A stretch of DNA of 64,000 bases from Acidimicrobiales bacterium (lineage in GTDB: Bacteria > Actinomycetota > Acidimicrobiia > Acidimicrobiales > Ilumatobacteraceae), in assembly GCA_046081125.1 (NCBI GenBank), contig JBJTVH010000040.1, positions 109 to 64,108 on the forward strand, read 5' to 3'. A program made the translations under genes and the position numbers. A model generated the notes under the pieces. That model was given only the letters and a program-made list of their open reading frames with translations, did not search any database and had not been told where the DNA came from. Positions 15,922 to 34,128 of this stretch are shown here, one piece after another. Positions within the stretch are counted from its first letter, which is position 1. Each line of letters begins with the position of its first letter.

Positions 15922-16382
15922 TCGACTTCTCCCGCACCTTCCACACCGGCATCCGAGTGCCCGACATCCGCGCCGCGATGGCCGAGCTGTCCGACCAGCT
16001 CGGCGTCACCTGGGCGGCGCTCCAGGAGCGGGACCAGGCCGTGTGGACCCCGGAGACCGGGCTGGTGACCACCCCGCTCAAGTTCACCTACTCCTGCGAG
16101 GGGCCGGTGCACCTCGAGCTTCTCCAGGGTCAACCCGGCACCTACTGGTACGGCGCCGACGCACCGGGCCCGCACCACATCGGGGTGTGGGTCGACGACG
16201 TGAAGGCCACCACCGAAGCCGCCGTCGCCGCCGGATGGACGCTGCTGTCGGCCGGGGCGCCGCCCGAGCAGGGGTACGGAGCGTTCACCTATGTCCGCTC
16301 CCCGCAGGGAGTCATCGTCGAACCGGTCTGGAGCGCAGTCATCCCGGCGTTCGAACGCTGGTGGGCGGGCGGCTCGCTGTGA
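15918..16382 (+). CDS. VOC (glyoxalase/bleomycin-resistance fold) family protein
   Basis: GTG 15918 overlaps the trmH-like stop (GTGA). FHTGIRVPDI... and HHIGVWVDDV are typical paired beta-alpha-beta-beta-beta module signatures. Confidence 0.7.
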   Translation: MIDFSRTFHTGIRVPDIRAAMAELSDQLGVTWAALQERDQAVWTPETGLVTTPLKFTYSCEGPVHLELLQGQPGTYWYGADAPGPHHIGVWVDDVKATTEAAVAAGWTLLSAGAPPEQGYGAFTYVRSPQGVIVEPVWSAVIPAFERWWAGGSL

Positions 16383-16774
16383 GCATCCAGGTCACCACCG
16401 GCGCGGCGCTCGTGTGCAGCTTCGGGATCGCGCCGTCCACGCTCACCGTCGTGCCGACCGGTCCCCCCGTGATGGCCGGCGGAGCGCCGGCCGCCACCGT
16501 GCAGGACAACAAGCCGATGGCCAACGTCGCTCCGTTCGGCATGTGCACCACCCTCACCAACCCGCAGGTCGCCGCGGCCACCTCCGCGGCGCTCGGCGTG
16601 CTCACGCCGCAACCGTGCCTCCCGGTCACCACCGCGCCGTGGACCCCGGGGTCGACCTCGGTGCTGATCGGCGGCCAGCCGGCCCTCGGGTCCACCTGCA
16701 CGCTGCTGTGCCAGTGGGGCGGCACGATCACCATCACCGCACCGGGCAGTGCCACCACGGTGATGACCGGCTGA
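16379..16774 (+). CDS. DUF4280 (PAAR-like spike-tip) protein
   Basis: GTG 16379 overlaps the VOC stop (GTGA). 131 aa with DUF4280-type pattern ...GAALVCSFGIAPSTLTV...NVAPFGMCTTLTNPQVAAATSAALGVLTPQPC.P......W.PGS..VLIGG.PAL...C.LLCQWGG.ITI. Confidence 0.8.
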   Translation: MSIQVTTGAALVCSFGIAPSTLTVVPTGPPVMAGGAPAATVQDNKPMANVAPFGMCTTLTNPQVAAATSAALGVLTPQPCLPVTTAPWTPGSTSVLIGGQPALGSTCTLLCQWGGTITITAPGSATTVMTG

Positions 16775-16902
16775 CCCGCAGCAGCCCGGACCCGCCCGGC
16801 CGGTGGACGCACCGGGGTGTGTCAAGATGCCGGCCGCCGTTGGTCGACGCCGCTGCGGAGGGTTCGGATGCCTGGACGGAGTGCCGTCGTGAAGGTTCCG
16901 TC

Positions 16903-17523
16903 GTGAAGATCCCCGTGTTCGTCCATGCCGATGATCCGGTCCTGCAGGCCGGGGTCACGGCGCTCTTGCGTGGTCGCCCCGAGGCGACCGTGGTCGAGGC
17001 CACCGACCTCGACACGGCCCGCGTGGTGATCGTCGCGGCCGACGACGTCGACGAGCCGACCGTTCGCACCGCTCGGGCGTTGCAGCGCAACGGCTCGATG
17101 CGGCTGGTGCTCGTGATCACCAACCTCGGCGACGCGGCGCTGCTGGCCGGGATCGGTGCGGGCGCCTGCGGGTTCGTGCGCCGATCGGAGGCCACCCCCG
17201 AGCGCCTCGGTGCGGTCGTGCGCAGTGCCGCGTCGGGAGACGGTGCCGTGCCACCCGACCTGCTCGGGCGCCTGCTCGAACACATGAGCTCCGTGCAGAG
17301 CTCGATCCTCGAACCCCGCGGGCTGTCGCTGTCGGGCCTGTCGGAGCGAGAGACGACGGTCCTGCGGCTCGTGGCCGAGGGGCTCGAGACCTCCGAGATC
17401 GCCGAGCGGTTGTGCTTCTCCGAGCGCACCGTCAAAGGCGTCATCCACGAGGTGACGACCCGGCTGCGGCTGCGCAACCGGGCCCAGGCCGTCGCCTACG
17501 CCGTGCGGCAGGGCCTGATCTGA
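16903..17523 (+). CDS. LuxR/NarL-family regulator with atypical receiver-like N-domain
   Basis: GTG 16903. C-terminal HTH LSERETTVLRLVAEGLETSEIAERLCFSERTVKGVIHEVTTRLRLRNRAQAVAYAVRQGLI. The N-terminal 120 aa are receiver-like. Confidence 0.85.
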   Translation: MKIPVFVHADDPVLQAGVTALLRGRPEATVVEATDLDTARVVIVAADDVDEPTVRTARALQRNGSMRLVLVITNLGDAALLAGIGAGACGFVRRSEATPERLGAVVRSAASGDGAVPPDLLGRLLEHMSSVQSSILEPRGLSLSGLSERETTVLRLVAEGLETSEIAERLCFSERTVKGVIHEVTTRLRLRNRAQAVAYAVRQGLI

Positions 17524-17616
17524 GCCGGACACGTCCGCAAGGGAAGCCGCCCCTGCCCGAAGGGGCGCACGAGTAGCCGTTCCCTCCCTGTACGGGGCGT
17601 CCTACCGTCGCCGACG

Positions 17617-18318
17617 GTGATCCACGAGGTCGACGACGCAATCCGAGCCCTGCTGCGCCGCGATGCCATCCGGGGTACGGACATCGACATCGTGTTCGAC
17701 GCGCCCACGAAGGAATGGTCGAGCCGGCGCAATGCGCCGACGATCGACGCCTACCTCTACGACATCCGGGAGGACGTGCGCCGCCGCGAGGTCGGCCGGG
17801 TCGACGTCCGCACCGACGGCCTGGTCACCGCCCGTGTCGGCCCGCCACGCTGGTTCAAGCTGTCCTACCTGCTGACGGCCTGGACGCAACGGCCCGAGGA
17901 CGAGCACCGACTGCTCGCCGCCATGCTGCGCGGGCTGTTGCGCTACGAGGCGCTGCCGGCCGACCTGCTGACGGGTTCGCTGGGCGATCTCGGCCTACCC
18001 GTGCCGTACACCTGCGGGCTCCCGCCACCGGAGGACCGGGCGTTGTCGGACGTGTGGTCGGCCCTCGGTGGCGAGTTGAAGCCCTCGCTCGATCTCGTCG
18101 TCATCGCGCCGTTCGATCTGTCGCGCGACCACGAGTTCGGACCGCCGGTCACCGAGGAGACCCGGCTCGTGGTGAGCACCGGTCGCAATCTCGCCACGAA
18201 CGACTGGGCCCCCGAACGCAGCGAGCCCCCTCGGGTTCCGCTGGCCTCCGAGGAGCGCGTCGTCGGCCCGCCGCAGCGGCCCGGCCGACGGGTGCGGATC
18301 ACGGAACTGCCCCGATGA
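17617..18318 (+). CDS. DUF4255 protein (Afp16/Pvc16-like tail terminator/cap)
   Basis: The N-terminus, with IDIVFDAPTKEW...PTIDAYLYDIRED...FKLSYLLTAW, matches the DUF4255 pattern. It is translationally coupled (ATGA) to the AAA+ ATPase, as in eCIS loci. Confidence 0.8.
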   Translation: MIHEVDDAIRALLRRDAIRGTDIDIVFDAPTKEWSSRRNAPTIDAYLYDIREDVRRREVGRVDVRTDGLVTARVGPPRWFKLSYLLTAWTQRPEDEHRLLAAMLRGLLRYEALPADLLTGSLGDLGLPVPYTCGLPPPEDRALSDVWSALGGELKPSLDLVVIAPFDLSRDHEFGPPVTEETRLVVSTGRNLATNDWAPERSEPPRVPLASEERVVGPPQRPGRRVRITELPR

Positions 18319-20291
18319 ACGCCGCCGAGCGCTACCTGCAGGGCCGGCTCGACGGTGTGCGCGCCCGCGTAGCCGCTGCGATCGAGCGACGCCGCGCCGG
18401 CGATCCCGACCCCGGCGATCGCTTCCGCGGGCTCTACGTCAGCGACGAGCAGGCGGGTCGGCTGCTCGACGACCGGCCGCCACTCGCCGACGTCCCCACC
18501 CTCGACGACGACCTCGAGCGCTGGGCCGACGAGCGCGAGCAGGATGGCGCCGTCGTGCACCTGCGCGACACCGCCCGGGCCTTCGGGCTCGATCCGGTCG
18601 AGGTCGAGCTGATGCTCGTCGCCGCCGCACCGGATCTCGATCCCCGCCTCGAGCGCGCCTACGGCTACCTGCACGACGACGTCACCCGACGGCGGGCCAC
18701 GATCGGCCTCGCGATCGAGCTGACCGGCGGCCGGCCCGACGACCCGGCGGCCCGGGCCCGGCTCGGCCCGGTCGGCACGCTCGTGCGGTTCGGGCTCGTC
18801 GTGGTGGAGGAGACCGACCGGCCGGTGCTGTCGCGGTCGCTGCGCGTGCCGGACTGCGTGCTCGATCACCTGCTCGCCGGCCAGGGCGCCGACCCGGTGG
18901 TCGACGCCCTGCGAGAACGGCCCGTCGCGGCGAACGACATCGACGGCGAATCCTTGGCCCGCGCGCTGCGCTTCGGGTGCCCGCTCGTCTACGTGCGCGA
19001 CCGGCTCGGGGCGGCGACGCTGTCGTTCGCCGTGCGCGGCGTCCACGCCGCCGGCCGGGAGGCGCTCGTGGTCGATCTCGACCGTCTCGCCCCCGGTGCC
19101 GACGTCGCCGCAGTGACCCAGTCGCTCGTGCGCGCCGCCCGGCTCGACGGGGCGGTGCTGGTGGCCGGGCCGATCGAGGCACTGTCCGAGCGTGACGCCG
19201 CGGCGGCCCGGCAGCTCGCCGACGCCGAGGTCGACACCGTGCTGATCGGACACCGGGCCTGGGACCCGGTGTGGTCGCGCCGACCGCCCCTGCAGCTCGA
19301 CCCGCCGGACATCACCGGTGACTTCGCCGCAGGCCTGCCGTTCCGCCTCACCCCCGAGCAGGCCGCCCGGGCGCGCGCCGCGGCCGAACTGCAGGCGACG
19401 GCCTTCGGCGAGCCGGTCACCCTCGACCACCTCGCGGCGGGGGCCCGGGCCCAGAACGCGAGCGGCCTCGAGCGGCTGGCATTGCGGATCTCTCCGGTCG
19501 CCGGGTTCGACGACCTGGTCCTGCCCGAGCCCGTGACACAGCAACTCACCGACATCGTGGCCCGCGTCCGCCATCGGACCCGGGTGCTTGGCGACTGGGG
19601 GATGCGGCGTTCGGCCGGCAAGGGCCGTGGGGTGACGGCACTGTTCGCCGGCGACTCGGGCACCGGCAAGACGCTCTCGGCCGAGGTGGTCGCCGGGGCG
19701 CTCGGCCTCGACCTGTACGTGATCGACCTTGCGACGGTGATCGACAAGTACATCGGCGAGACCGAGAAGAACCTCGACCGGATCTTCCGGGAGGCCGACC
19801 GGGTGAACGGCGTGCTGCTGTTCGACGAAGCCGACGCGATCTTCGGCAAGCGCTCCGAGGTCCATGACGCCCGGGATCGCTACGCCAACGTCGAGGTGGC
19901 CTACCTCCTGCAGCGCATGGAGCGGTTCGACGGCATCGCCATCCTGACCACGAACCTGCGGGCCAACCTCGACGACGCATTCCTGCGCCGCCTCGACGCC
20001 CTCGTCGATTTCCCCACCCCGGACGAGCCGAGCCGTCGCCTGCTGTGGGAGCGCCACCTCCCCCGCAGCCTGCCCACCGGCTCCGACGTCGACCTCGGGT
20101 TCCTCGCCCGCGCGTTCGACCTCCCGGGCGGCAACATCCGCAACATCGCCGTGTCCGCCGCGTTCCTGGCCGCCGCCGCCGACCGGGACGTCGGGATGCC
20201 CGATCTGATCAAGGCCACCGTGCGCGAGTACCGCAAGCTCGGACGGCTGTGCCTGGAATCCGAGTTCGGGCCGTACTTCTCGCTCGTCTGA
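18315..20291 (+). CDS. AAA+ ATPase (Afp15/Pvc15-like)
   Basis: ATG 18315. Long N-terminal region followed by a single AAA+ module: Walker A GDSGTGKT, Walker B VLLFDEADA, sensor-1 ILTTN, second region of homology LRRLD. Confidence 0.9.
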   Translation: MNAAERYLQGRLDGVRARVAAAIERRRAGDPDPGDRFRGLYVSDEQAGRLLDDRPPLADVPTLDDDLERWADEREQDGAVVHLRDTARAFGLDPVEVELMLVAAAPDLDPRLERAYGYLHDDVTRRRATIGLAIELTGGRPDDPAARARLGPVGTLVRFGLVVVEETDRPVLSRSLRVPDCVLDHLLAGQGADPVVDALRERPVAANDIDGESLARALRFGCPLVYVRDRLGAATLSFAVRGVHAAGREALVVDLDRLAPGADVAAVTQSLVRAARLDGAVLVAGPIEALSERDAAAARQLADAEVDTVLIGHRAWDPVWSRRPPLQLDPPDITGDFAAGLPFRLTPEQAARARAAAELQATAFGEPVTLDHLAAGARAQNASGLERLALRISPVAGFDDLVLPEPVTQQLTDIVARVRHRTRVLGDWGMRRSAGKGRGVTALFAGDSGTGKTLSAEVVAGALGLDLYVIDLATVIDKYIGETEKNLDRIFREADRVNGVLLFDEADAIFGKRSEVHDARDRYANVEVAYLLQRMERFDGIAILTTNLRANLDDAFLRRLDALVDFPTPDEPSRRLLWERHLPRSLPTGSDVDLGFLARAFDLPGGNIRNIAVSAAFLAAAADRDVGMPDLIKATVREYRKLGRLCLESEFGPYFSLV

Positions 20292-20297
20292 TCGCCC

Positions 20298-23200
20298 TCA
20301 CGGCGGCGCCACGGACATGTTCGGCTCCGGCGCCGCGGGCGACTCCGAGGAGCCGTACTCCGACGCCGTGCCGTCGACCGCGGCCCGGCCGACGCCCGAG
20401 AGCACCCGGGCGATCGTGCTGCGGTAGGCGAGCCAGCGGGCATGGTTCGCCATCTGCGCCGACATCGCCTCGATGGCCGAGGCGCTGTGGGCGAGGTTCG
20501 CCTCCTGCCGCAACGCCGTGAGCAGGCTGGTCGACTGCTGGGTGACGGCGGCGAGCGCCGCTTCGGCATCGGCCCGGATCGCCGCATCCACGACACCGCG
20601 ATCGGCGCGCACCTTGATGCTCTCGAATCGGGTCACCAGGTCGGCGAACACGCCTTCGGCCGGGCCCTCGAAGCCGACCTCCGCCATACGTCGGCCGTAC
20701 TTGCCGATGCTGCGGAACGCGTCCGCAAGCTGTCCCGGGTTGACGGCGTGGTGCAGTTCCTCCACCGCGTGACGGATCTTGGGGATCTGGTCGATCACCG
20801 AAGACATCCGATCGACGGCGGACATCGGTGCGCCGAGCGGTCCGATCCCGCCGGGTGGCTCGTACAGGCCTCGCTCGGTCACGTAGCGCCGGGTGCCGCC
20901 GCTGGTGAAGTAGCCGCCCTCCTCGGCGGCGTTGATCATCGACTGCCGCTCGACGATCGACTCGGCCACCCGGGCCTGCGCGGCGGTATCCCCGGACCGG
21001 CAGGCCTCGACGAGTTGCTGCTGAAGGGCGTCCACCTCGTGCGACAGCGCGTTGGCCTGCGTCGCGTTCATCACCGACACCCGCCGCACCGGGATCCCGG
21101 CGGCATCCATCTGGGCGCGCAGCGCAGCGACCGCCGCCTCGTCGCCGGCCTGCTGGGCCATCTGGAGCTGCGAGTTCATGACCATCACCTGCTGCGAGGC
21201 CGCCGTGCGCCGGGCGATGTCCTCCCGCAGCGCATCGGGCACCACCTCGGTGAAGGCCCGCATGCGGGCGGCGTCGGTGAAGAAGTCGTTCTTCAGCAGC
21301 CGGTTCAACCCTCCGGGCCCGGTCCCGGCTCGCTCGGCCAGGAACAGCCGCGCCCGGTCACGGTTCTCGGCAGCGAAGGTGCCGTAGGTGGAGATGTCGA
21401 GGTCGTTCTTGAACGACCCGCGCGATCCGGTCGCTTCGAGCAACGGCTGACCCTCGGCGATCCCCTCCCGTCGCAGCCCGTTCGGCGCCCAGTTCAGGAG
21501 ATCCCCGTAGAGCACTTCGCGCCAGGCCACGAGCGCCTTGCCGGTCTCGGACTCGTTGCCGAGCACCGACGACAACATCGTCCATCCCCCGGCCTGGTCG
21601 AGCAGGCCCTTGGGGCCGAGGGCGGCGAGCCCGTCGCGCGCCGCCGCCTCGGCCGCAGCACCCCGCAACTTGCCGCTCGCGATCAACGCCACCCGCTGAC
21701 CGACCGAGCGCGACACCGCCGCGCCGGCCCCGGAGGCACCCGCCTCGACGCCCTCGCGGGCGAGCAACTCCTGGTAGGCGAGCACCTGCCGGCCCGCCGC
21801 CGAGTCCCGCCCGACCGCGGTGAGCAACTCCTCGGCGCTCTTCCCCGACAGGCGCATCGCCTCGGGCACCCCGACCTCGCCGATCCCGCGCGCCAGCACC
21901 TCGGCGGCGTTGGGCGGAAGCGCACCCCGCCCGATCTCGGCGAGCGCGGCGGCCCCCATGCGCTCTTGCGCCGCTCGGGTGACGCCGCGCTCGGCAAACA
22001 ACGCGCGGCCGCGCCCCACACTCTGGAAGCCGTCCAGGAACGCGAAGACCGTATCGAGGATCGCTGCGACGAGCGCCGCATCGGCCTGCCCCTGTGAAAC
22101 GAGCGCCGTCTCCGGTGACGTCGAGGCCCGGGCTGCGACCGCAAGGTCCTCCCACTGCTCCCAACTGCGCGCCGCCATGCTCGCACTGGTGGCCACGCCG
22201 CCGACGAGCGCCACGGTGGCCAAGCCGCCGCTCGCGATCTCGGCGACCACGAACAACGCGCCCGACAGCACGCCGCCGCCGATGGCGAGCAGGGTCTGCA
22301 TCCCCTCGTGGTCGCCGATCACGCCTTGGCCGATGGTGCGGTAGAAGCGGCCCTGCTCGGCGTAGAGCTGGCCGTGGATGGGCTGCAGGTCCCGCCAGTC
22401 GAGGTCGCCGGAATCGATCTTCGGCTGGGTTTCGCGGATCTTGGTCTCGGTCTCGCGCAGCTGGGTGGCCATCTCGGTGCGGGCCTGCTGTGGGCTGGCC
22501 TGCGCCAGGGCATCGACCCGGTTGTCACGTATGGCGAGATGCACGGTCGGCGACATCGCCGAATACCCCGTGAGGACCGCCTGAACCCTGTCCCAGTTGG
22601 TCTTCACCGCGTCCCAGCTCGAGAACCCCGGCTCGGTCGAGGCACGGGTCGGTTGGGTGTTCGGATCGAAGCGGGACACCACCTCGTCGGGTCCGAACGA
22701 GGGCATGTCGCTGTAGTTCGGAATCGTGTCGTAGCCGACCGGGATCTCCCGCAACCCAGCGGCGAACTGCTGGGCCCGGCCGACCTCGACGAGGATCTGC
22801 TGCACGAACGCGAGCCGGTCGTCCTGGTCGTTGCGGACCGCTTCGTTCGGCGCCGACGCCTCCAACCCCATCGCCTCGATCTCGCCGTGGACGCTCGTGA
22901 GGTTCCGGGCCATGTAGTCCCGGGCCCGCTGCTTGGTGTCGTTCTCGAACCGGGTCCGCAGCGCCGCCACAGCGCCGATCGAGTGCAGCTCCGCGCCCCG
23001 GGCGATGCACCCCTCCCACAGCGCGAAGTTGGCCTCGGCCACGCCCTGGATTCCGGCGCCGAAGCTGTCCCAGATCCGCTCCATCGCCGACTCGTCGAGC
23101 GGACCGGCCCAGCCCTGGTTCGAGAGCATCGACAACGCTCGGATCCGTTCCGGTTGACTGAACGACCCCCACGACATGATGTCCTTGAGGGGTCCGACGT

Positions 23201-23471
23201 CGTCGAGGGTGATCGCCCGGTCGTAGCGGCTGCGGTCGGTCTCGGCCGCCCGCTCCAACGGGGCGGCGAGCTGCTCGTCGGTGATCCGAGCGACGAACGT
23301 CCCGGCGGCCTGGTTGCCCGCGAGCCGCTGCACCCGACCCACCATCGCTGCGGCCATGCCGGCCGGTGCGGCCGGATCGAGGACCGGCGGGGCACCCTCC
23401 GGCGACCGGCCGGCGGTGCGCGCCGTGCGAGCCGGTGCCGGTTCCGCCGCCGGCCGCGCCCGCTGCGTCAC
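20298..23471 (-). CDS. large (1057 aa) CIS-associated orphan protein; candidate cargo/effector or structural extension
   Basis: GTG 23471 overlaps the stop of the gpI-like gene (GTGA). The N-terminus has MVGRVQRLAGNQAAGTFV. Central hydrophobic hairpin LLAIGGGVLSGALFVVAEIASGGLATVALVGGVATSA. The remainder is Ala/Glu/Arg/Gln-rich and looks helical. No family recognised. Confidence 0.75.
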   Translation of the reverse strand: MTQRARPAAEPAPARTARTAGRSPEGAPPVLDPAAPAGMAAAMVGRVQRLAGNQAAGTFVARITDEQLAAPLERAAETDRSRYDRAITLDDVGPLKDIMSWGSFSQPERIRALSMLSNQGWAGPLDESAMERIWDSFGAGIQGVAEANFALWEGCIARGAELHSIGAVAALRTRFENDTKQRARDYMARNLTSVHGEIEAMGLEASAPNEAVRNDQDDRLAFVQQILVEVGRAQQFAAGLREIPVGYDTIPNYSDMPSFGPDEVVSRFDPNTQPTRASTEPGFSSWDAVKTNWDRVQAVLTGYSAMSPTVHLAIRDNRVDALAQASPQQARTEMATQLRETETKIRETQPKIDSGDLDWRDLQPIHGQLYAEQGRFYRTIGQGVIGDHEGMQTLLAIGGGVLSGALFVVAEIASGGLATVALVGGVATSASMAARSWEQWEDLAVAARASTSPETALVSQGQADAALVAAILDTVFAFLDGFQSVGRGRALFAERGVTRAAQERMGAAALAEIGRGALPPNAAEVLARGIGEVGVPEAMRLSGKSAEELLTAVGRDSAAGRQVLAYQELLAREGVEAGASGAGAAVSRSVGQRVALIASGKLRGAAAEAAARDGLAALGPKGLLDQAGGWTMLSSVLGNESETGKALVAWREVLYGDLLNWAPNGLRREGIAEGQPLLEATGSRGSFKNDLDISTYGTFAAENRDRARLFLAERAGTGPGGLNRLLKNDFFTDAARMRAFTEVVPDALREDIARRTAASQQVMVMNSQLQMAQQAGDEAAVAALRAQMDAAGIPVRRVSVMNATQANALSHEVDALQQQLVEACRSGDTAAQARVAESIVERQSMINAAEEGGYFTSGGTRRYVTERGLYEPPGGIGPLGAPMSAVDRMSSVIDQIPKIRHAVEELHHAVNPGQLADAFRSIGKYGRRMAEVGFEGPAEGVFADLVTRFESIKVRADRGVVDAAIRADAEAALAAVTQQSTSLLTALRQEANLAHSASAIEAMSAQMANHARWLAYRSTIARVLSGVGRAAVDGTASEYGSSESPAAPEPNMSVAPP

Positions 23472-26016: not shown

Positions 26017-26414
26017 GGCTGCTCCTGCGGGATGACGTAGAAGGGGAACACGAGGTTGCGCGGATCATTCGAGCCGCGGATCTCGTAACGGATGTCGATG
26101 TACAGGCACGAGCCGTCGGTCTCGTCGGCCCGCACGGTCACGTCGAGGACGTCGATGCGCGGTTCCCATCGCTCGAGTGCCCGAAGCACGGCGTCGCGCA
26201 GGCGTCCGGCGGTCTCCCGGTCGGCGGGAGCGAACACGTAGTCGTGGATGCCGCAACCGAACTCGGGCCGCATCGGGCGCTCGCCCGGTGCCGTCGCCAG
26301 GATCAGCCGGATGGCCTCCTCGATCTCCTGGACCCCGGTGACCAATGCGAGCGACCCGGACGGGTCGAGCCGCAACGGGAAGGCGATCCCTGCACCGATC
26401 GGACTGCGCGCCAT
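26013..26414 (-). CDS. GPW/gp25-family baseplate wedge protein (Afp9-like)
   Basis: 133 aa. GIAFPLRLDPSG...EEAIRLILATAPGERPMRPEFGCGIHDYVF is the gp25/GPW signature. Confidence 0.9.
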   Translation of the reverse strand: MARSPIGAGIAFPLRLDPSGSLALVTGVQEIEEAIRLILATAPGERPMRPEFGCGIHDYVFAPADRETAGRLRDAVLRALERWEPRIDVLDVTVRADETDGSCLYIDIRYEIRGSNDPRNLVFPFYVIPQEQP

Positions 26415-26427: not shown

Positions 26428-28158
26428 TCAGTTGAGCTGGATCGGTTGACCGGACACCCGCACCGGGCCCGACCCGCTGACGGCGACTTGACCGCCGTCG
26501 AGATCCAGGTTCGATTGGGCCTTGACCTTCACCGATCGCCCGGACAGCTCGAGGGTGCCGGTGGCCTCGACGGTCACATCGCCCCGGGCGGAGATCTTCA
26601 CGTCGCCGTCGCTCTGCACGGTCAGGCTCTTGCCCGCTTGGTCGAGACGGATCGAGATCGCACCGTCGCCAGTTCGCAGTTCGATCCCCTCGGTGCCGCT
26701 CGCGTCGACGAAGACGAGTTGGTGGCCGGTGCGAGACGTGAACAGACGGTTGTTGACCGCGCCGTTGCCCGAGTCGAGCAGCTGGCCCGGGCCGGTCACC
26801 GCTTTGTCCTGGCCGTTGTAGAGCCCGCCGAGCACGTAGGGGTGGTTCATGTCGCCCTGCTCGAACGCGACGAGGACCTCGTCGCCGACCTCGGGCAGCA
26901 ACAGCCAGCCGCGGTCGGCACCTGCGCCGGCGTGACTGACCCGGGACCACACGCTCACGAACTGATCGGCGAGCCACGGGAAGCGCAGGCGCACCCGGCC
27001 GAGTTGGTCCGGGTCGTCGACGTCGTCCACGACGGCCGGCACGACGCCGGCGATCCGGGTCGACCCCCCATCACCCCCGCCGGTGAGCCCGAGCAGCGAG
27101 CGGGCCTCCCGGCCCGACACGGTGAACAGCGTCCGATACCCCTCGGTCGGGTCGTACCGGTGCGTGGTGGAGGTCAGCACGTACGTGCCGTCGAAGGGCG
27201 CGCCGGCGAGCGCTAGTCGCACTGCCGCACCGGCCCGCAACTTGGGATCGCCGTGCGCGATCCCGTCGATCTCGGCGAAGCTCGCCGCCACGTGCTCGGC
27301 GAGCGCCCGCGCGGCCGCGTCGGCGGCCCCTGCGTTGCGGATCGGCGGATCGACGGCGACCAGGGGCGGGCCCTTGAACAGGCCCGCGAGTTCGGCCGGC
27401 GTGTGGCCGTTGGCGATCGTGACGGTGCGGGCCGGCGCCGTCGCCGTGATCGCCCGCTTGTCGAGCGGGTCCCATCCCCGTACCTCGACCTGCTCGACCT
27501 GTTCGGCCGCGGTCACCGCGGCCCGAAGCTCGACCAGGTTGCCGCCCACCGTCAGCGTGAGCGGATCCTGGCTCGAGAGGTCGGCCTGCCCGGGTGCCCC
27601 CTGCGACGTCGACGGGGGTCGGAAATGGAGGCGGCCGTCGCTCACGAGCACCTCGTTGCCGACCTCCCGGGCCAGGCGACGAAGGAACTCCCAATCGTTC
27701 TCACTGGCCTGCGTGACATGCGGGTGGGTCGAGTTGGTCGCCACGATGTCGCCCGACCGGAGATGGTGCCGGTCGGCCACCTTCCGAGCGATGTCGGCAT
27801 AGGTGACGTTGACGTAGCTCTCCGTGATGCGGCCGTGGAACAACCGGTGGGACTCGTCGTAGCCCCGCACGACCGTGTAGCTGGTCCCGGCGTGGATCTC
27901 GGCCTCCAGCGCCGTGATCTCCCCTTCGATGAGCGGCTCGCCGGCGGGATGCGCGTCGTTGATCACCACCACCTTGAGCTTCGCCCCGATACGAGCCCCC
28001 ATGCGCTCGACGGCGTTGCGCGCCGGATCCTTGAGCGTGATCGAGAACGAATCCGGCAGGTGGAGGTGGTCCTCGACTTCCACCTCGACGATGTCGACGC
28101 CGTCGACGCGCGAACCGCCCACGCTGATCGCGAGGTTGTTGGACGGTTGCGCGGGCAC
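26428..28158 (-). CDS. VgrG / phage late control gpD-like spike-hub protein (Afp8-like)
   Basis: 576 aa. gpD-like N-domain (...SFSITLKDP...TVVRGYDESHRL...NDWEFLRRLAREVG). gp5-OB-like middle (RVRLRFPWL...SVWSRVSHAGAG). C-terminal beta-helix repeats. Confidence 0.9.
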   Translation of the reverse strand: MPAQPSNNLAISVGGSRVDGVDIVEVEVEDHLHLPDSFSITLKDPARNAVERMGARIGAKLKVVVINDAHPAGEPLIEGEITALEAEIHAGTSYTVVRGYDESHRLFHGRITESYVNVTYADIARKVADRHHLRSGDIVATNSTHPHVTQASENDWEFLRRLAREVGNEVLVSDGRLHFRPPSTSQGAPGQADLSSQDPLTLTVGGNLVELRAAVTAAEQVEQVEVRGWDPLDKRAITATAPARTVTIANGHTPAELAGLFKGPPLVAVDPPIRNAGAADAAARALAEHVAASFAEIDGIAHGDPKLRAGAAVRLALAGAPFDGTYVLTSTTHRYDPTEGYRTLFTVSGREARSLLGLTGGGDGGSTRIAGVVPAVVDDVDDPDQLGRVRLRFPWLADQFVSVWSRVSHAGAGADRGWLLLPEVGDEVLVAFEQGDMNHPYVLGGLYNGQDKAVTGPGQLLDSGNGAVNNRLFTSRTGHQLVFVDASGTEGIELRTGDGAISIRLDQAGKSLTVQSDGDVKISARGDVTVEATGTLELSGRSVKVKAQSNLDLDGGQVAVSGSGPVRVSGQPIQLN

Positions 28159-28161: not shown

Positions 28162-28839
28162 TCAGCTCCCCGAGGGCACGACGAGGCGGCGGCCGGGCCG
28201 GACGCGCAACGGATCGTCGATGTCGTTGGCCCGGGCGATCTCCCGCCATCGGGTCGGGGTGCCGAGCAGTCGGGTGGCGACATGGGCGAGCCGTTCGCCA
28301 CCGTCGAGCTGATGCAGGGCCATCGCCTCGATCGCCCCCGAGGTGGGGTTCTGGCGCGGCGGAACGACGGCCAGCACCTCCTCGAGCGTGAGGGTCACCA
28401 CGGCGCGAATCGCCTGACCCGACGACGCGAACCGGGTGTACTTCACCGCAACGGTCTTCACCGTTGCGCAGTGGACGTAATCGGTGCCGCCCCAGGAGAA
28501 CTTGGCATACGGCGCGACCGGCTTGTTCTGGTCGCCCCCCTTGATCGGCATGACCGCGGCCATCAGCTTCGCCGCCACCTCGACGACCGCCGGGGCGTCC
28601 TTGCCGTCCTCGGACCGGTCGAGGAACATCTCGATGGTGATGGTGCCGCCCTTGGCGCCGTTGTACTCCGGCGGCGCCGGCGTCTTGCCGTTCTTCGGCT
28701 TCCACTCGGCCGAGCGCTGCACGGTGAACTCCTTCGGGTTGAAGGAGAACTCGAACTTTGCGATCTCGTCGCCGAGTCCCCGGCCGCCGTTGGCCGGCTT
28801 GTGCAACGTGAGGGAGGCCTTCGCCAGCTTGCCGTCCAT
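28162..28839 (-). CDS. tube-initiator-like protein with C-terminal LysM (Afp7 / P2 gpX-like)
   Basis: 225 aa. C-terminal LysM: HQLDGGERLAHVATRLLGTPTRWREIARANDIDDPLRVRPGRRLVVP. Confidence 0.85.
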   Translation of the reverse strand: MDGKLAKASLTLHKPANGGRGLGDEIAKFEFSFNPKEFTVQRSAEWKPKNGKTPAPPEYNGAKGGTITIEMFLDRSEDGKDAPAVVEVAAKLMAAVMPIKGGDQNKPVAPYAKFSWGGTDYVHCATVKTVAVKYTRFASSGQAIRAVVTLTLEEVLAVVPPRQNPTSGAIEAMALHQLDGGERLAHVATRLLGTPTRWREIARANDIDDPLRVRPGRRLVVPSGS

Positions 28840-28843
28840 CGCC

Positions 28844-29281
28844 TCAGAACCCCTTGTCCTCGTACTCGAACCCGTGGTGGGCCAACTCCAGGGTTTCGGT
28901 CGCCACCTTCGCCGACTCCGCGTTGAACGACGGGCCCGTCCAGCGCACCGGGATCACCCCGGTGAGACTCCACGAGGCCAGGTCGCGACCCTCGGCGTCC
29001 TTGGCCGTGATGCGACCGGTCTTGCGGGTGACCTTGCCCCCCATCGACGAGAACCACTTGGCGACCTTGGCGCTCGAACGGTCGAGCGGTCGGGTGAGCT
29101 TGATGTTCGTGTACTTCACGCGCACCGGGAGCTGGTGGACGAAGGTGTTGTTGCCACCCTCCTCGCGCTGCTCGACCACGACCTCGGCCCCGAGGCCGTC
29201 GCACTGGGTGAACGCGCCGAGTTCAACGCCGTCGATCTCGACGCTGAAGTAGAGCTGGATTCCCGGATCGCCGTCGGCCAT
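28844..29281 (-). CDS. phage tail tube protein (T4 gp19-like; Afp5-like paralogue)
   Basis: 145 aa. F.VEIDGV..G.F..C.GL..E.....EGG.N.....LP.R.KY.NI.L.R... is the pattern of eCIS tube proteins. Confidence 0.9.
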   Translation of the reverse strand: MADGDPGIQLYFSVEIDGVELGAFTQCDGLGAEVVVEQREEGGNNTFVHQLPVRVKYTNIKLTRPLDRSSAKVAKWFSSMGGKVTRKTGRITAKDAEGRDLASWSLTGVIPVRWTGPSFNAESAKVATETLELAHHGFEYEDKGF

Positions 29282-29291
29282 CGATCTCCCC

Positions 29292-31514
29292 CTACCGCCG
29301 GGTCCGCGTCAGCGAGCCGGCCCGCTCCCGGTCATGGCGCAGTTCCTGCTTGAGCAGCAGCCGCATGCGCCCGTAGAGGCGCTTGGCCAATTCGTCGAGT
29401 TCCGCTCCCGACGCAGCGGCGGCCCCGCTGCTCGCCCCGGATCCTCCGGCCGTCGCCGCGCCCCCGCCCGGTCCCCCGTCGGCCTCCCGCTGGACCGGTT
29501 CGTCGTCGGCCGGGGCGTCGAACACGACAGAGCCATCGGCGTGACGTTGCGCCACTCCCGAGGCCACGGCGACGGCACCGGCATCGACCCACGACCCGGA
29601 ATCGGGCGCCGCAGGCGTCGACCCGCCTCGCCAGTCGAGCGAGGCTGCGTTTGCGCGTGCGACCGGCGCGCCGGACAGGACGGCACGCTGCACGGACGGT
29701 CGGTCCGGCGTCGAGGTCGGCGACGCACCTCCAAGCGAACTGGACATGGCGCCCGAGGACGCCGCCGCGGGTGCCACGCCATCGGCAGCCGGCACGGGCC
29801 GCACGCTCGATGCCACCGGCCGATCACCGAGCAGCGCCGCCGTCAGCGGACTATCGCTCGCCATGCGCTGCAACGGCCCTGCTGGCTCGATCGCGTCGAG
29901 CACGGCATCGGCGCTCGACGCCGCCGGGTTCGCCTCCGGCATTGCGTGGCGCTGGACGGGCAGCGGGGCTGCGACCGGGCTCGTCCCCTCGGTGGGCCCG
30001 TCGAATATTGCGCCGGAGAGTGGCGAGCCCGCCCCTGCGGGCGCCTGCGGCCGACGGTCACCGAGCAGCGGGGCGACGGTCGCCGATTCGGCGGTCGTGC
30101 CCGGCTCGCCGGACACGATTGTCGGCCCGGACACGATTGTCGGCCCGGACTCGACCGACGTCCCCGGTACCTCCACTGCGCCGGCAAGATCCGCAACGCC
30201 TCGGGCGGTCGGTGTCCCAGGTGCCGGTAGCCCAGGTGCCGGGGGTACCGATGGCAACGGTGCGCCGAGACCGACCCGACGCGTCGGAACAACCGCCGCC
30301 CCCTCGGTACGTCGCTGCACCACCGGCCCGGCACCGCTTAGGTCGGGCCCCGCCGTCGACGAACCACCAGACCCCGACCGGACCGGCAACGACCCAGCAC
30401 CGAGCACCGGTGCAACCGAGGTCGCGTCCGAACCCGACGCAGGCCCCGCAGCACCGGCGCCGATCAGCGAGCCCGGGATCGGCGCCGGGTCCTGCGCCGG
30501 ACCCGACGATCCCCCGCTGCCCGACGATCCGTCGGCGGCACGACTCACGACCGGTCCGCCCAGGCCGGGGCGACGTGCCGCCGAAGCAGGCGACTCGACC
30601 GGACCCACGCGAGGCGGGGCGCCGGCATCACCCGACCCGTGCTCAGGCGCATCACCTGATGCGCGACCGGCCCCGACGAGCGGCGCCACCGCCGCGGGGT
30701 CATCACCGGCCCCGACGAGCGACGCCGGTTCGCCTGATCCGTCGCCCAGCGGATCGACCGGTAGCTCGACGGGGAGCAAGGCCGATGGCACGGCCGAGCC
30801 GTCGGCTGCCGCTTCGGTCACGGCGCGGCGCTGTACCGACGGCGTCGGGCCCTCCGAGGCCCGAGCCGGAGCCGGCTCGGCCGGCGGCGACACCACGGAC
30901 CCCGTCGGCAGCGCCAGGTCGTCACGGGAGTCGAGACGATCAGCCCAAGCGGACGCCGGCCCTTGCAGCCCAAGGGACGCTGCGTCGGGCACCGTGGCGG
31001 GTTCTGCTGACACCGGCGACGGCTCGGCCGGCGTCGGTTCGCGCACGGCCGTCACCGGCACGGAACGACTCGGCATGGCGACGACCGGCGCAGGACGACG
31101 AGGGCCGTCCAGCGCAACCACGCGCTGGACGGGCGGTCCCGCCGACGGCCCAGGTGCAGCGCTCTGACCCACGTTTCGCCCCTGCGCGACGCGTGCCTCG
31201 GCATCGCGATGCGCCCGGGCGAGCACGAGACCGGCCGGGGCGTCGCTCGACACGGCGTGATCGAGTTGGCGCAACACCAGCGGCGACTGCCACGAGGCCA
31301 AGGACCGGTCGAATCGCCGGTGGACCACCGGCTCGATCGGTGACACCACCGCCGGCATGGCCGGCAGGGTCGTCCAGTCGGCACGCACGGCGCCGCCGAG
31401 CGGCGAGCCCTCGTGCGTGCCGGCGGGCGACCGATCCTGGTCCGGCTGCTCGGCGGCCGGCGAGGCGCCGTCCGCGGCGCCGGTTCGCGCCCGCAACCAG
31501 TCGAACAGGCCCAT
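29292..31514 (-). CDS. Pro/Ala/Gly/Ser-rich low-complexity protein in the tape-measure position
   Basis: 740 aa; ATG 31514. Eight [V/L/A]QR motifs and six L[LVI]G[AD][GR] motifs are spread through a low-complexity body. The charged helical C-terminus is ELDELAKRLYGRMRLLLKQELRHDRERAGSLTRTRR. It lies between the chaperone-like genes and tube2/LysM/VgrG. Confidence 0.7.
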   Translation of the reverse strand: MGLFDWLRARTGAADGASPAAEQPDQDRSPAGTHEGSPLGGAVRADWTTLPAMPAVVSPIEPVVHRRFDRSLASWQSPLVLRQLDHAVSSDAPAGLVLARAHRDAEARVAQGRNVGQSAAPGPSAGPPVQRVVALDGPRRPAPVVAMPSRSVPVTAVREPTPAEPSPVSAEPATVPDAASLGLQGPASAWADRLDSRDDLALPTGSVVSPPAEPAPARASEGPTPSVQRRAVTEAAADGSAVPSALLPVELPVDPLGDGSGEPASLVGAGDDPAAVAPLVGAGRASGDAPEHGSGDAGAPPRVGPVESPASAARRPGLGGPVVSRAADGSSGSGGSSGPAQDPAPIPGSLIGAGAAGPASGSDATSVAPVLGAGSLPVRSGSGGSSTAGPDLSGAGPVVQRRTEGAAVVPTRRVGLGAPLPSVPPAPGLPAPGTPTARGVADLAGAVEVPGTSVESGPTIVSGPTIVSGEPGTTAESATVAPLLGDRRPQAPAGAGSPLSGAIFDGPTEGTSPVAAPLPVQRHAMPEANPAASSADAVLDAIEPAGPLQRMASDSPLTAALLGDRPVASSVRPVPAADGVAPAAASSGAMSSSLGGASPTSTPDRPSVQRAVLSGAPVARANAASLDWRGGSTPAAPDSGSWVDAGAVAVASGVAQRHADGSVVFDAPADDEPVQREADGGPGGGAATAGGSGASSGAAAASGAELDELAKRLYGRMRLLLKQELRHDRERAGSLTRTRR

Positions 31515-31517
31515 GGC

Positions 31518-31664
31518 TCAACGACCTTGGGCGAGTCGCTCCGCCTCGGCCACGAACCGGCGCCGCAGCGGGTGTTCGAGGTCGAGGATGTCGTCGAGCG
31601 GCCAGTGGTAGTGGAAGGCGAGGAACGCCGCTTCCCGGTAGAGCCGGTCCGAGGCGTTCCTCAC
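31518..31664 (-). CDS. small conserved-looking CIS ORF (48 codons), absent from the ORF track
   Basis: GTG 31664 overlaps the upstream stop (GTGA). It translates VRNASDRLYREAAFLAFHYHWPLDDILDLEHPLRRRFVAEAERLAQGR. TGA at 31520..31518 lies 3 nt before the ATG of the next gene. The composition is protein-like and not Arg/Pro noise. It resembles short proteins I recall from actinobacterial CIS loci (possibly DUF6760, unverified). Confidence 0.55.
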   Translation of the reverse strand: MRNASDRLYREAAFLAFHYHWPLDDILDLEHPLRRRFVAEAERLAQGR

Positions 31665-32122
31665 GGTTCCCCCAGGCGACCACCGGCCAGGTCGACCGTC
31701 AACTCGTGCTTGCAGGCGGGGCAGACCACCCGGGCCCGCGTGTGGCCCTCGGTGTTGATGCGGCGGTAAAGGTCCTGCAGGAAGGCCAGATCGGTGGCGA
31801 AGAGCCCTTCGATCGTCCCGGCGTGGACGTCGGTGATGGTCCCGAGCCGTTCGATGACCCGGGCGAGCAACACGACGGTCAGATAGGCGGGATTCTCGCG
31901 GACCCGGTCGTCGAGCAGGGGCACCAACTCGTCGCGGGCGGTGGCCAGACGCATCACCCCGTCCCGGTGGAGGCGCCCGCCGCTGTCCACGTACCCGCGC
32001 GGCAGCACGAACGTGAACTCCGTACGCAGCTCGTAAGGCTCCTCGCGCGGCGCCGGTGCCGTCGGCGAACCCTCCTCGGGCCCGTCGGCACCACCGGACG
32101 CAGACGCGAAGGACCGCCGCAT
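31661..32122 (-). CDS. tail-assembly-chaperone-like protein with C-terminal CxxC (Afp6-position)
   Basis: ATG 32122 shares one nucleotide with the tube1 stop (TGATG). 153 aa: ...YELRTEFTFVLPRGYVD..G.LHRDGVMRLATARDEL...NPAYLTVVLLARVIERLG...VVCPACKHELTVDL. It occupies the P2 gpE position. Confidence 0.65.
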   Translation of the reverse strand: MRRSFASASGGADGPEEGSPTAPAPREEPYELRTEFTFVLPRGYVDSGGRLHRDGVMRLATARDELVPLLDDRVRENPAYLTVVLLARVIERLGTITDVHAGTIEGLFATDLAFLQDLYRRINTEGHTRARVVCPACKHELTVDLAGGRLGEP

Positions 32123-32565
32123 CACTCGGGCTGCAGGGCTTCGTACGTGATCACGAGCTTCTCGGTGACCACGCTGGTGTCGCCAGCCTTCAGCGTGCCG
32201 AGCTCGAGGCTCTTGGGCCATGCAGCCGTCAGCTTGTACCGCTTGATCGCCACGCCCTCGTAGTCGTACACGATGATCGATCCGCCCTTGCGGGCGTCGT
32301 TCATCTTCCCGAAGTGGGCGGCCTTGATCCACTTCTCGAAGCTGCTGTCCGACGTGAGGGCCCGGGTGAGCGTGACCTCGCCGGCCTTGGGTCGGCCGGG
32401 GAGCTTCTTGTTGATGAACTTGCCGTCGGGCGAGTTGGCCTTCATCTCGATCGTGTCCTGCTCGATCTTGAGGCCGCTCACCTCCTGGATGTGCTTGATC
32501 ACGATGCCGTCGATCTCCAGACCGAAGGAGTGGCCGACGGCGCCGTCGAGATCAGGGAGCGCCAT
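32122..32565 (-). CDS. phage tail tube protein (T4 gp19-like; Afp1-like)
   Basis: 147 aa. GHSFGLEIDGIVIKHIQEVSGLKIEQDTIEMK...GEVTLTRALT.D..F.KWI matches the eCIS inner-tube family. Confidence 0.9.
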   Translation of the reverse strand: MALPDLDGAVGHSFGLEIDGIVIKHIQEVSGLKIEQDTIEMKANSPDGKFINKKLPGRPKAGEVTLTRALTSDSSFEKWIKAAHFGKMNDARKGGSIIVYDYEGVAIKRYKLTAAWPKSLELGTLKAGDTSVVTEKLVITYEALQPE

Positions 32566-32604
32566 GATTGATCACCTCGAAGTCGTTGTGGGCGTGTATC
32601 GGCG

Positions 32605-34128
32605 TCACTCGGCGAGCGCGGCGCCGCCGGAGAACTGGGACAGGCGGAAGATCACGAACTCCGCCGGCTTGACCGGCGCCACGCCGATCTCGCAGATGAG
32701 CTGGCCGAGGTCGACCGACTCCGGCGGGTTCGTCTCCCGGTCGCACTTCACGAAGAAGGCCTCGTCGGGCGTGAGGCCGAACAACGCGCCCTTGCGCCAC
32801 TCATTGGTGAGGAACGCCGAGATGGTGCGCCGCACCCGGGCCCACAGCGCATCGTCGTTCGGCTCGAACACCACCCACTGGGTGCCGTTGAGGATCGACT
32901 CCTCGAGGTAGTTGAACAAGCGCCGCACGTTCAGGTAGCGCCACTCGGGATCGCTCGACAGCGTGCGCGCACCCCACACCCGGATCCCCCGACCGGGGAA
33001 CGACCGGATGCAGTTCACCCCGATCGGGTTCAACAGTTCCTGCTCGCGCGACGTGAGGCTGCAGGCGAGGTCGACCACACCGCGCACCACCTCGTTGGCC
33101 GGCGCCTTGTGCACCCCCCGGGTGTCGTCGTTGCGACCCCAGATCCCGGCCACGTGGCCCGACGGCGGCACGAAGACGTTGGCGTTCACGGCCGGGTCGT
33201 ACACCTTGATCCAGGGCCAGTAGAGCGCGGCGTACTTCGAGTCGTACCCGGCGACGTCGGTGCGCCAGTTGGCGACCTTCTGCGGGTTTAGATCGGGCGG
33301 CGGGTCGAGGACCGCCACCCGGTCGCCCATCAGCTCGCAGTGGGCGATCATCGCCAACTGCACGGCCTTGACCCCTTCGAGCGTGAGCAGACCCTTCTGG
33401 TAGGCCGCCATCACGTCGGGGACGCACACCATCGTGATCTCGTCGATCGCCTCGAGGCCACCGAAGCCGGTGCGGTCCGCCGCGTCGCCGATGTAGTCCG
33501 ACGGATCGAGCTTGGCCGGGGTGGCCGAGGCCGCACCCCCGGCAAGGGCGACGGTGCCGTTGGCCGGCCGGATGGCGGGTGCACCGGCCACCTCCGCGAG
33601 TTCGATCAGCTGGCTCGCGCTCTTCAGCACGGTGACCGCGCTCTGCTTGCCCCGACCGCTGGTGAGGTTGTCGTGCTCCTCCACGACGCGGCCGTCGCGC
33701 TTGACCACGAGCTTGAAGGCCTCCTCGCCCCCCTCGCTCGCATCGGTGACCTCGACGCTCAGGCCGTCGCCGGTGGGACCGGCCTCCAGCGCCCGCACCG
33801 AGTAGCGGGCCTTGCTCCCGTCGCCGAGCGCACCGAGGATCCCCTGAGCATTCGGGGCGGCACCACCCGCTCCGACCCGGACCACGAAGCAGTTGCCGCC
33901 ACCGTTGAGGAAGTAGCCGTAGACGGCGTGGGCCAGGTAGCCGTCACCGGTGAAGTCGCCGAAGGTGTCGACGAACTGCTTCCAGTTCGACACCAGGGTG
34001 GGGGTGTTGGCCGGGCCCCGGGCGGCAAGGCCGACGAAGGCCGCCACCGCCGTGCCGACGCCCTCGATGGGCGCCGAGCCGGACGGCTTTTCCTCCACGT
34101 ACACACCGGGCGAGAGATAGGTAGGCAT
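32605..34128 (-). CDS. contractile tail sheath protein (Afp2/3-like)
   Basis: 507 aa. Hallmark N-terminus MPTYLSPGVYVEE. Conserved C-terminal sheath domain (...VNCIRSFPGRGIRVWGARTLS.DPEWRYLNVRRL...). Confidence 0.95.
   Translation of the reverse strand: MPTYLSPGVYVEEKPSGSAPIEGVGTAVAAFVGLAARGPANTPTLVSNWKQFVDTFGDFTGDGYLAHAVYGYFLNGGGNCFVVRVGAGGAAPNAQGILGALGDGSKARYSVRALEAGPTGDGLSVEVTDASEGGEEAFKLVVKRDGRVVEEHDNLTSGRGKQSAVTVLKSASQLIELAEVAGAPAIRPANGTVALAGGAASATPAKLDPSDYIGDAADRTGFGGLEAIDEITMVCVPDVMAAYQKGLLTLEGVKAVQLAMIAHCELMGDRVAVLDPPPDLNPQKVANWRTDVAGYDSKYAALYWPWIKVYDPAVNANVFVPPSGHVAGIWGRNDDTRGVHKAPANEVVRGVVDLACSLTSREQELLNPIGVNCIRSFPGRGIRVWGARTLSSDPEWRYLNVRRLFNYLEESILNGTQWVVFEPNDDALWARVRRTISAFLTNEWRKGALFGLTPDEAFFVKCDRETNPPESVDLGQLICEIGVAPVKPAEFVIFRLSQFSGGAALAE

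Follow-up and report, generated by a model that had tools for sequence, protein, structure and literature searches.

A class IId contractile injection system with two unusual accessory membrane proteins in an uncultured Acidimicrobiales bacterium

To our knowledge, experimental work on class IId contractile injection systems (CISs) has been confined to mycelial Streptomyces, where the systems are linked to development and to stress-induced death. We analyzed a 64,000-nucleotide stretch of DNA from an Acidimicrobiales bacterium (assembly GCA_046081125.1, contig JBJTVH010000040.1, positions 109 to 64,108; hereafter the window). It carries a complete and apparently intact system of this kind at 16379-36601, with the CIS core at 16379-34128 and the locus extending upstream beyond the sheath gene. 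In a bacterium not known to be mycelial, the locus raises the question of what the machine does without that life cycle. Judged from gene content and homology, the cluster is a complete class IId, Streptomyces-type CIS in uncultured Acidimicrobiales, and its core machine is ordinary for the class. We consider it quite likely that the particle is cytoplasmic and fibre-less and is fired at the cell's own membrane under stress, with two accessory membrane proteins serving as effector- or cargo-type parts.

The structural core and its closest relatives

The gene map between 15 and 38 kb was unambiguous by codon-position GC and a codon-usage model (the window has ~70% G+C). Window proteins were searched against Pfam, NCBIfam and PHROG; the Pfam scan covered the genes at 15918-44740 and the two core flanks (up to ~6.7 kb and from ~56 kb on), and the left flank was also taken from the annotation of a related locus, L001. 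Against solved structures in the Protein Data Bank (PDB), the sheath was searched alone, whereas the remaining parts were joined into one query and matches were assigned part by part. A genome scan with the sheath as query yielded 80 sheath-anchored loci (cited below by L numbers where needed), and 85 loci in all were used for the motif count given further on. The genes of the locus are listed here with the E-values of their matches.

16379-16774, plus strand: DUF4280/PAAR-like spike tip, Cis10-like (Pfam DUF4280, 2.2e-33, and a weak PAAR_motif; NCBIfam type VI secretion system IglG PAAR-like, 2e-6)
16903-17523, plus strand: LuxR/GerE regulator (Pfam GerE, 5.5e-14; homologues with 47-55% identity at ~99% coverage are neighbours of the sheath in many related loci)
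17617-18318, plus strand: cap or tail terminator Cis16, Pvc16_N, DUF4255 (Pfam Pvc16_N, 4.5e-40; PDB 9gts_0A, the S. coelicolor CIS cap, 1.9e-62)
18315-20291, plus strand: AAA+ ATPase with an N-terminal winged helix, Cis15/Pvc15-like (Pfam AAA, 8e-23, and WHD, 1.5e-20; homologues 48-67% identical)
20298-23471, minus strand: 1057-aa protein, helical throughout, with a hydrophobic hairpin at its centre and the motif VQRLAGNQA in its N-terminal part; its gene closes the structural operon and sits in the tail-fibre/CisA position
23468-24046, minus strand: baseplate wedge Cis12, gpI-like (Pfam Tail_P2_I, 5.7e-12; NCBIfam tail domain, 9e-25, and CIS12_fam, 2.6e-15; PDB 9gtp_E, 5.9e-28)
24043-26016, minus strand: baseplate wedge Cis11, gpJ-like (Pfam Baseplate_J, 7e-16; PDB 9gtp_1K, 2.4e-194, full length)
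26013-26414, minus strand: gp25-like baseplate protein Cis9 (Pfam GPW_gp25, 4.6e-28; PDB 9gtp_V, 1.9e-50)
26428-28158, minus strand: VgrG-like spike Cis8 (Pfam Phage_base_V, 1e-25, and Phage_GPD, 1.3e-12; PDB 9gtr_q, 4.2e-101)
28162-28839, minus strand: baseplate hub Cis7, CIS_tube plus LysM (Pfam CIS_tube, 2.2e-19, and a weak LysM; PDB 9gtp_P, 4.6e-30)
28844-29281, minus strand: second tube protein or tube initiator Cis1b, tube2 (Pfam Phage_T4_gp19, 6.6e-35; PDB 9gtp_a, 2.5e-42)
29292-31514, minus strand: 740-aa Ala/Pro/Gly/Ser-rich protein in the tape-measure position (C-terminus ELDELAKRLYGRMRLLLKQELRHDRERAG; eight hQR motifs)
31518-31664, minus strand: DUF6760 protein, 48 aa (Pfam DUF6760, 1.7e-7; kept in this slot in all related loci)
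31661-32122, minus strand: tail-assembly-chaperone-like protein, 153 aa, with a C-terminal CxxC (PHROG 508, tail assembly chaperone, 1.5e-6; 54-79% identical in related loci)
32122-32565, minus strand: tube Cis1a, tube1 (Pfam Phage_T4_gp19, 1.8e-28; PDB 8bl4_v, 1.8e-26)
32605-34128, minus strand: sheath Cis2 (Pfam Phage_sheath_1, 4e-26, and sheath_1C, 3.5e-20; PDB 8bky_A, 6e-208, and 8bl4_V, 7.5e-205, over residues 1-503)
34253-36601, minus strand: Sco4256-type accessory membrane protein, 124 nt upstream of the sheath (five Pfam PASTA domains, 5e-55)

Nine proteins are resolved in the particle of the Streptomyces coelicolor CIS (Cis1a, 1b, 2, 7, 8, 9, 11, 12 and 16; structures 8bky/8bl4, 9gtp, 9gtr and 9gts), and every one of them was the top PDB match of a window protein, with E-values from 6e-208 to 1.8e-26. 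For the sheath, the next-best structure was 9ezm (1.8e-118), followed by Pvc2/Afp2 (1e-53 to 1e-47) and T4 gp18 (1e-17). By these match scores, which are not a tree, the sheath is closer to Streptomyces CIS sheaths than to those of Afp, PVC or phages. The systems CIS_Sc and CIS_Sv of S. coelicolor and S. venezuelae (PMC10066040, PMC12237407) and SLP of S. lividans have one-to-one homologues of the same nine proteins here, and they also share Cis15, the LuxR regulator, the order of the structural operon and the lack of a fibre and of a conventional tape measure. Their hosts are mycelial actinomycetes, whereas the present host is an Acidimicrobiales metagenome-assembled genome (MAG) known from sequence. 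Afp, PVC, AlgoCIS and the thylakoid-anchored CIS of Anabaena have the sheath, tube, spike, gp25, wedge, cap and ATPase families in common with the window system, but the similarity is far weaker (sheath E-values of ~1e-53 to 1e-31). Unlike the window system, Afp, PVC and AlgoCIS are equipped with fibres, and the first two also possess several sheath paralogues.

The nearest of the 80 sheath loci is in an Acidimicrobiales MAG (99% identity); other sheaths, 61-78% identical, come from Acidimicrobiales, Ilumatobacteraceae, Amycolatopsis, Actinoplanes, Micromonospora, Streptomyces and Kitasatospora, and related loci also occur in MAGs labelled Dormibacterota and Chloroflexia. A look-up of the exact sheath sequence gave no record, but the 1057-aa protein led to a near-identical ENA contig. 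The order sheath-tube-chaperone-DUF6760-variable gene-tube-LysM-VgrG-gp25-J-I was kept at least through DUF6760 in all 80 loci, and through the rest wherever the sequence suffices, as the shorter contigs end before the baseplate genes. Streptomyces, Kitasatospora, Amycolatopsis and Actinoplanes all have this structural order.

The first-pass annotation of the window, made from the sequence alone, had called a complete, fibre-less CIS in two convergent operons. Every core part that it named is present where it was placed, and the Pfam, NCBIfam and PHROG searches back its sheath, tube and baseplate assignments throughout. Its estimate that gaps or overlaps after tube1 are at most 13 nt also holds, with measured spacings of -4 to +13 nt from tube1 through the 1057-aa gene. 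The minus-strand genes and their order were borne out, except that the gpI-like gene is not the last of them, since the 1057-aa gene follows. The list of core parts was likewise complete but overlooked two genes at the edges of the structural operon, the 1057-aa gene and the PASTA gene. The convergent layout was confirmed, with 6 nt between the two stop codons, and recurs in L008. Coding sequence fills 16379-36601, where the largest gaps measure 128, 124 and 93 nt, and therefore leaves no space for an unassigned open reading frame (ORF) or a fibre gene. The 1057-aa protein, being all-helical with a hydrophobic hairpin, is not fibre-like, so that the absence of a fibre gene stands. The proposed likeness to the cytoplasmic CIS of Streptomyces is upheld as well, given the LuxR regulator and given that those proteins are by far the closest solved relatives.

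Two accessory membrane proteins

The protein encoded upstream of the sheath consists of a Zn ribbon (residues 1-26), a Pro-rich linker, tandem PapD-like beta-sandwiches (~90-300), a transmembrane (TM) helix (306-331) and five PASTA repeats. AlphaFold2 (AF2) modelled residues 90-331 as two beta-sandwiches followed by the TM helix, with a predicted local distance difference test (pLDDT) value of ~97. Foldseek neighbours of the PapD-like region were CEP192 SPD-2 (7ptb), Hydin/ASH domains, 7sqc, 2qsv, RbmA (4kkq/4kkr), CsuC and YadV (5ghu), with E-values of 1e-6 to 5e-11. The published HHpred analysis of Sco4256 domain 1 gives the same entries, namely RbmA, CsuC, YadV 5GHU, 2QSV, CEP192 7PTB and 7SQC (PMC10020575). 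Sco4256 has a three-part architecture, with homologues listed for Ilumatobacter, a member of the Acidimicrobiia (PMC10020575, Supplementary Data 4-5), and Sco4256-58 are CIS-associated effectors of S. coelicolor (PMC10066040). Like Sco4256/4257/4258, the PASTA protein combines a PapD-like N-domain, a TM helix and a variable C-terminal glycan-binding domain, and is encoded upstream of the sheath. It differs from them in carrying five PknB-related PASTA repeats instead of a lectin/ricin domain, and in its additional Zn ribbon and Pro-rich linker. By predicted fold, architecture and context, the PASTA protein fits the Sco4256 family, Sco4256 being compared here by its published description. The link to Sco4256 is indirect and runs through the listed Ilumatobacter homologues (PMC10020575 Supplementary Data 4) and the Ilumatobacteraceae members of the family.

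In ~33 of the 80 sheath-anchored loci, the ~220-residue N-domain recurs no more than 10 kb from the sheath, joined to differing C-termini: PASTA repeats in five Acidimicrobiales genomes, a Cys-containing domain without annotation in Dormibacterota and Ilumatobacteraceae, repeats in Actinoplanes and fn3 in others. In three loci its gene lies directly after cis12, in the fibre/CisA slot. No Sco4256-like gene lies within 10 kb in the Streptomyces/Kitasatospora loci L049, L074 and L084, which are apparently differently arranged. Some CIS-linked relatives (L057, 3-2231; L033, 4002-5771) have 3-5 or more tandem PapD-like domains followed by several TM helices, not one.

PASTA domains are extracytoplasmic. 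The TM and PASTA part of the protein is collinear with, and 32% identical to, that of the PknB encoded in the same window (4539-6689), which has four PASTA repeats to the five of the CIS-linked protein; the two genes lie within 30 kb of each other. This collinearity suggests that the ectodomain of the CIS-linked protein derives from a PknB-type gene. Because the PASTA ectodomain is of a peptidoglycan- or lipid II-binding type, the protein would probably act at the cell wall. In our literature search, no paper was found linking PASTA domains with contractile injection systems, and no main text treating Acidimicrobiia together with these systems.

Two observations concern the PASTA gene itself. 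Its codon 265 (35807-35809) is a TTA, one of only three among ~18,500 called-gene codons of the window; TTA codons in Streptomyces CIS genes have been remarked on as a potential means of developmental control. Divergent from the PASTA gene is a gene (36855-37823, plus strand) for an intramembrane protease of the PrsW family, a neighbourhood kept only in the same species (L006) and absent from other CIS loci. Bacillus PrsW initiates a sigma-factor cascade of the envelope-stress response.

The second accessory gene ends the structural operon: it starts with GTG and overlaps the end of cis12 by 4 nt. The encoded 1057-aa protein has no match in Pfam, NCBIfam or PHROG. A 37-residue hydrophobic segment (residues 353-389 of the 1019-aa form) is predicted to form a hairpin. 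The AF2 model is all-alpha, with a pLDDT of 64 and a predicted template modelling score (pTM) of 0.30, and Foldseek with this poor model gave no PDB fold match, the listed matches being noise. An exhaustive HMMER search recovered 836 clusters, many matching the N-terminal half only, and the protein therefore belongs to a sizeable, modular and unannotated family. The impression of near-uniqueness given by a word-indexed search (8 matches) was dropped on the strength of this result. We also discarded a nucleotidyltransferase-like motif (GSxGSFKNDLDIS) in the C-terminal half, as it had no Pfam, NCBIfam or fold support. Relatives at 81-87% identity occupy the same CIS position, and a 33% identical relative lies near WHD-AAA and DUF4280 genes. 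In L008, which has the same convergent layout, only ~700 bp separate cis12 from the ATPase gene; the 1057-aa gene is therefore an addition in this lineage.

The N-terminus of the 1057-aa protein is hydrophilic and disordered and leads into VQRLAGNQA. The pattern [LVIM]QRx[AIVLMQ]GNx[AV] was carried by 25 ORFs in 20 of the 85 loci, where shuffled sequences would give 0.05, and in a six-frame translation of the whole window it occurred once only, in the 1057-aa protein. Three of the 25 (in L001, L002 and L005) are the 1057-aa protein itself. Other carriers include small canonical DUF4157 proteins and the adjoining large helical Sle1-like proteins upstream of sheaths, with examples at L047 5163-8054, L075 4942-9663 and L013 4520-9217. 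We infer that VQRLAGNQA may be a cargo or adaptor tag, and the motif common to DUF4157, Sle1-like and 1057-aa proteins could mark cargo of this CIS class.

A CisA homologue follows the baseplate genes in ~75-79% of Streptomyces loci. CisA (Sco4242) is a membrane protein needed for CIS_Sc firing (PMC12237407), and in the window its slot is held by the apparently unrelated 1057-aa protein. The two are alike in gene position, directly after cis12, and in membrane association. CisA has 468 aa, one TM helix and a ~150-aa extracytoplasmic C-terminal domain behind a Cys-rich segment (PMC12237407); measured against this published description, the all-helical architecture of the 1057-aa protein with its central hairpin does not fit. 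Sle1 and Sle2 are an effector pair of actinobacterial CISs and are related to tape measures (PMC13277306). The DUF4157 proteins and adjoining large helical proteins that carry the motif in related loci correspond to this pair. Sle1 and the 1057-aa protein are both large and helical, with a hydrophobic helical hairpin, and the 1057-aa protein has the LQRxAGNxAV-type N-terminal motif of the Sle2-like and Sle1-like proteins in related loci. Unlike Sle1, however, the 1057-aa protein is encoded behind the baseplate genes, not ahead of the sheath, and has no adjacent DUF4157 (Sle2) partner; phmmer found no match between it and the Sle1-like ORFs of related loci, with only the short N-terminal motif shared. 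Most likely, the 1057-aa protein would be a membrane-inserting cargo or adaptor in the slot of Streptomyces CisA.

Tape-measure slot, convergent operon and chromosomal setting

Ala, Pro, Gly and Ser make up 55% of the 740-aa protein in the tape-measure slot; the protein matched no family in Pfam, NCBIfam or PHROG. The slot is occupied in 73 related loci by proteins of ~550-1165 aa where the ORF was fully recovered (median 48% A/P/G/S), and the C-terminal motif ..L(A/V)(K/R)RL(Y/F)..L(K/R).EL..DRER.G is present in most of the 73, across Actinomycetota, Dormibacterota and Chloroflexia. A protein with a conserved end and variable length is a candidate tape measure or lumen protein. The Streptomyces CIS papers state that a conventional tape measure is lacking. 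In those systems, too, DUF6760 and the second tube gene flank a low-complexity gene.

Class IId loci mostly place the genes for regulator, cap and ATPase ahead of the sheath gene and on its strand; in Dormibacterota the cap gene is divergent. CIS_Sc, CIS_Sv and SLP likewise have the cap, ATPase, regulator and PAAR-like genes upstream of the sheath, whereas here they are downstream and convergent. For the regulator, cap and ATPase, this placement was seen in the present lineage and in one related genome (L008). The split into convergent operons is a rearrangement. A scan for sigma-70 promoters and terminators at 19.9-37.9 kb gave nothing above chance, and an Rfam scan found two tRNAs and no other RNA family. 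Upstream, the SpoU methyltransferase, VOC/glyoxalase and DUF4280 genes (15121-16774, plus strand) are joined by consecutive 4-nt overlaps, so that the spike-tip gene appears translationally coupled to two unrelated enzyme genes; the 87% relative L005 has the same arrangement.

The locus is flanked on the left by pstP, rodA, pbpA, pknB and crgA and on the right by gyrA, gyrB, recF, dnaN and the 3' end of dnaA, with metabolic and regulatory genes between the CIS and these core flanks. The distance between the cluster and the dnaA-dnaN spacer is ~29 kb. GC skew is negative throughout the window, consistent with an origin at or beyond its right end; a DnaA-box scan picked out a single weak site in the spacer, at chance level. 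This synteny of the flanks extends to the same species and close relatives only (L001, L005 and L006); the other cluster-bearing Acidimicrobiales (L007-L009 and L021) lack it. Since these carry the cluster elsewhere, the position near oriC has little functional weight. The first-pass annotation had singled out this position inside core synteny as unusual; the position is real but limited to this species and its close relatives, and is not obviously meaningful.

On the right, a 5.7-kb island (38037-43791) sits at a tRNA-Ala gene (43772-43848, minus strand), with a G+C of ~0.65 versus 0.70-0.72 elsewhere. It contains a DUF433 plus PIN-like (DUF5615) pair, an HTH_17 excisionase-like gene, a GntR regulator and a tyrosine integrase (42360-43547), and an imperfect 23-nt repeat of the tRNA 3' end (38037-38059 and 43769-43791) delimits it. 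The island lacks phage structural genes. Its integrase, the sole one found, is ~8 kb from the outer end of the sheath gene and ~6 kb from the PASTA gene. The same-species MAG L006 lacks the island but keeps the CIS.

Proposed working and rival readings

By homology to the S. coelicolor system, the particle would assemble in the cytoplasm without fibres. Under envelope stress, the particle would fire against or through the cell's own membrane, and firing would lead to cell death or envelope remodelling rather than to attack on distant prey. The PASTA protein, with its cytoplasmic PapD-like domain, membrane helix and external five-PASTA array, would be the local counterpart of Sco4256-58; it would act at the wall, whether delivered outward as cargo or serving as anchor and sensor. 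The 1057-aa protein, whose gene is coupled in translation to cis12, would be the tagged, membrane-inserting cargo or adaptor in the CisA slot. Several points weigh against this picture. Localisation, firing direction and the role in cell death are all extrapolated from mycelial Streptomyces, and sequence proves none of them. The structure model of the 1057-aa protein is poor, and three distant relatives with readable surroundings are not beside any CIS, so that its link to the machine could be local and recent. No DUF4157 gene was recognised among the Pfam-scanned window genes, and no CisA (Sco4242) homologue was recognised in the window by Pfam and NCBIfam, whose profiles include no CisA model.

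The PASTA protein may instead tether the particle to the cytoplasmic membrane, much as the Anabaena CIS is held at thylakoids, and serve as anchor and sensor but not as cargo: its PapD-like domains would bind the baseplate, and the PASTA array would report wall damage and thereby trigger firing. We regard this as a possibility worth keeping in view, though one that falls well short of even chances. The topology, N-terminus inside and C-terminus outside, with extracytoplasmic PASTA repeats collinear with the TM and PASTA part of PknB, is consistent with it, and folded tandem Ig-like domains would be awkward in a tube lumen. The three loci with the N-domain gene in the fibre/CisA slot, and the need of Streptomyces firing for the membrane protein CisA (PMC12237407), point the same way, whereas Sco4256-58 of S. 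coelicolor behave as lumen cargo and the tubes of the triple mutant are empty (PMC10066040). It is unlikely that the locus encodes a conventional extracellular CIS (eCIS), released by lysis of the producer to inject other organisms, with the membrane proteins having no role in firing. Such a reading could draw on the core parts common to Afp, PVC and AlgoCIS, on the AAA+ ATPase and PAAR-like tip typical of eCISs, and on one Streptomyces study that handled the homologous system as an eCIS (PMC10020575). However, Pfam and NCBIfam searches revealed no fibre or receptor-binding gene, lysis cassette or recognisable soluble toxin, the nearest characterised relatives are cytoplasmic (PMC10066040, PMC12237407), and both accessory proteins are membrane proteins.

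Least probable by a wide measure is a decayed myovirus prophage, with the locus as its tail module, or an R-type tailocin; the P2-like gene order and the tyrosine integrase ~6 kb from the outer end of the locus might call these to mind. The integrase belongs to the separate tRNA-Ala island with its own att repeats, which is missing from a same-species genome that bears the CIS. No capsid, portal, terminase, holin or endolysin/lysis gene was found among the scanned window genes (~44.8-56 kb lying outside the scan), and the cap, AAA+ ATPase and DUF4280 protein are CIS markers. The G+C of the cluster equals that of its surroundings, and the same cluster is conserved across phyla. The first-pass annotation had argued that the locus is not a prophage tail, and this conclusion stands, with no head, terminase or lysis genes found, housekeeping flanks and matching G+C. 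Its statement that no capsid, portal, terminase, lysis or integrase genes lie next to the locus needs one amendment: head, terminase and lysis genes are indeed not found, but an integrase does lie ~8 kb off, in the separate island.

We therefore retain the reading of a cytoplasmic, fibre-less class IId CIS fired at the cell's own membrane. A bolder and rather improbable version of it is that a Sco4256-type protein swapped its lectin for a PknB-derived PASTA array, wiring a peptidoglycan/lipid II sensor to the cytoplasmic CIS as a self-destruct or envelope-repair device triggered by wall damage, while the 1057-aa hairpin protein would be a membrane-breaching cargo known by its LQRxAGNxAV-type tag.

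The class IId CIS as such is known, and these findings leave its basic picture unchanged; what is new is the lineage, in which the class has not been discussed, and the two unusual accessory membrane proteins. The PASTA-bearing homologue would fix the topology of its effector family, with the C-terminus outside, at the wall, and it suggests a testable link between cell-wall status and firing.

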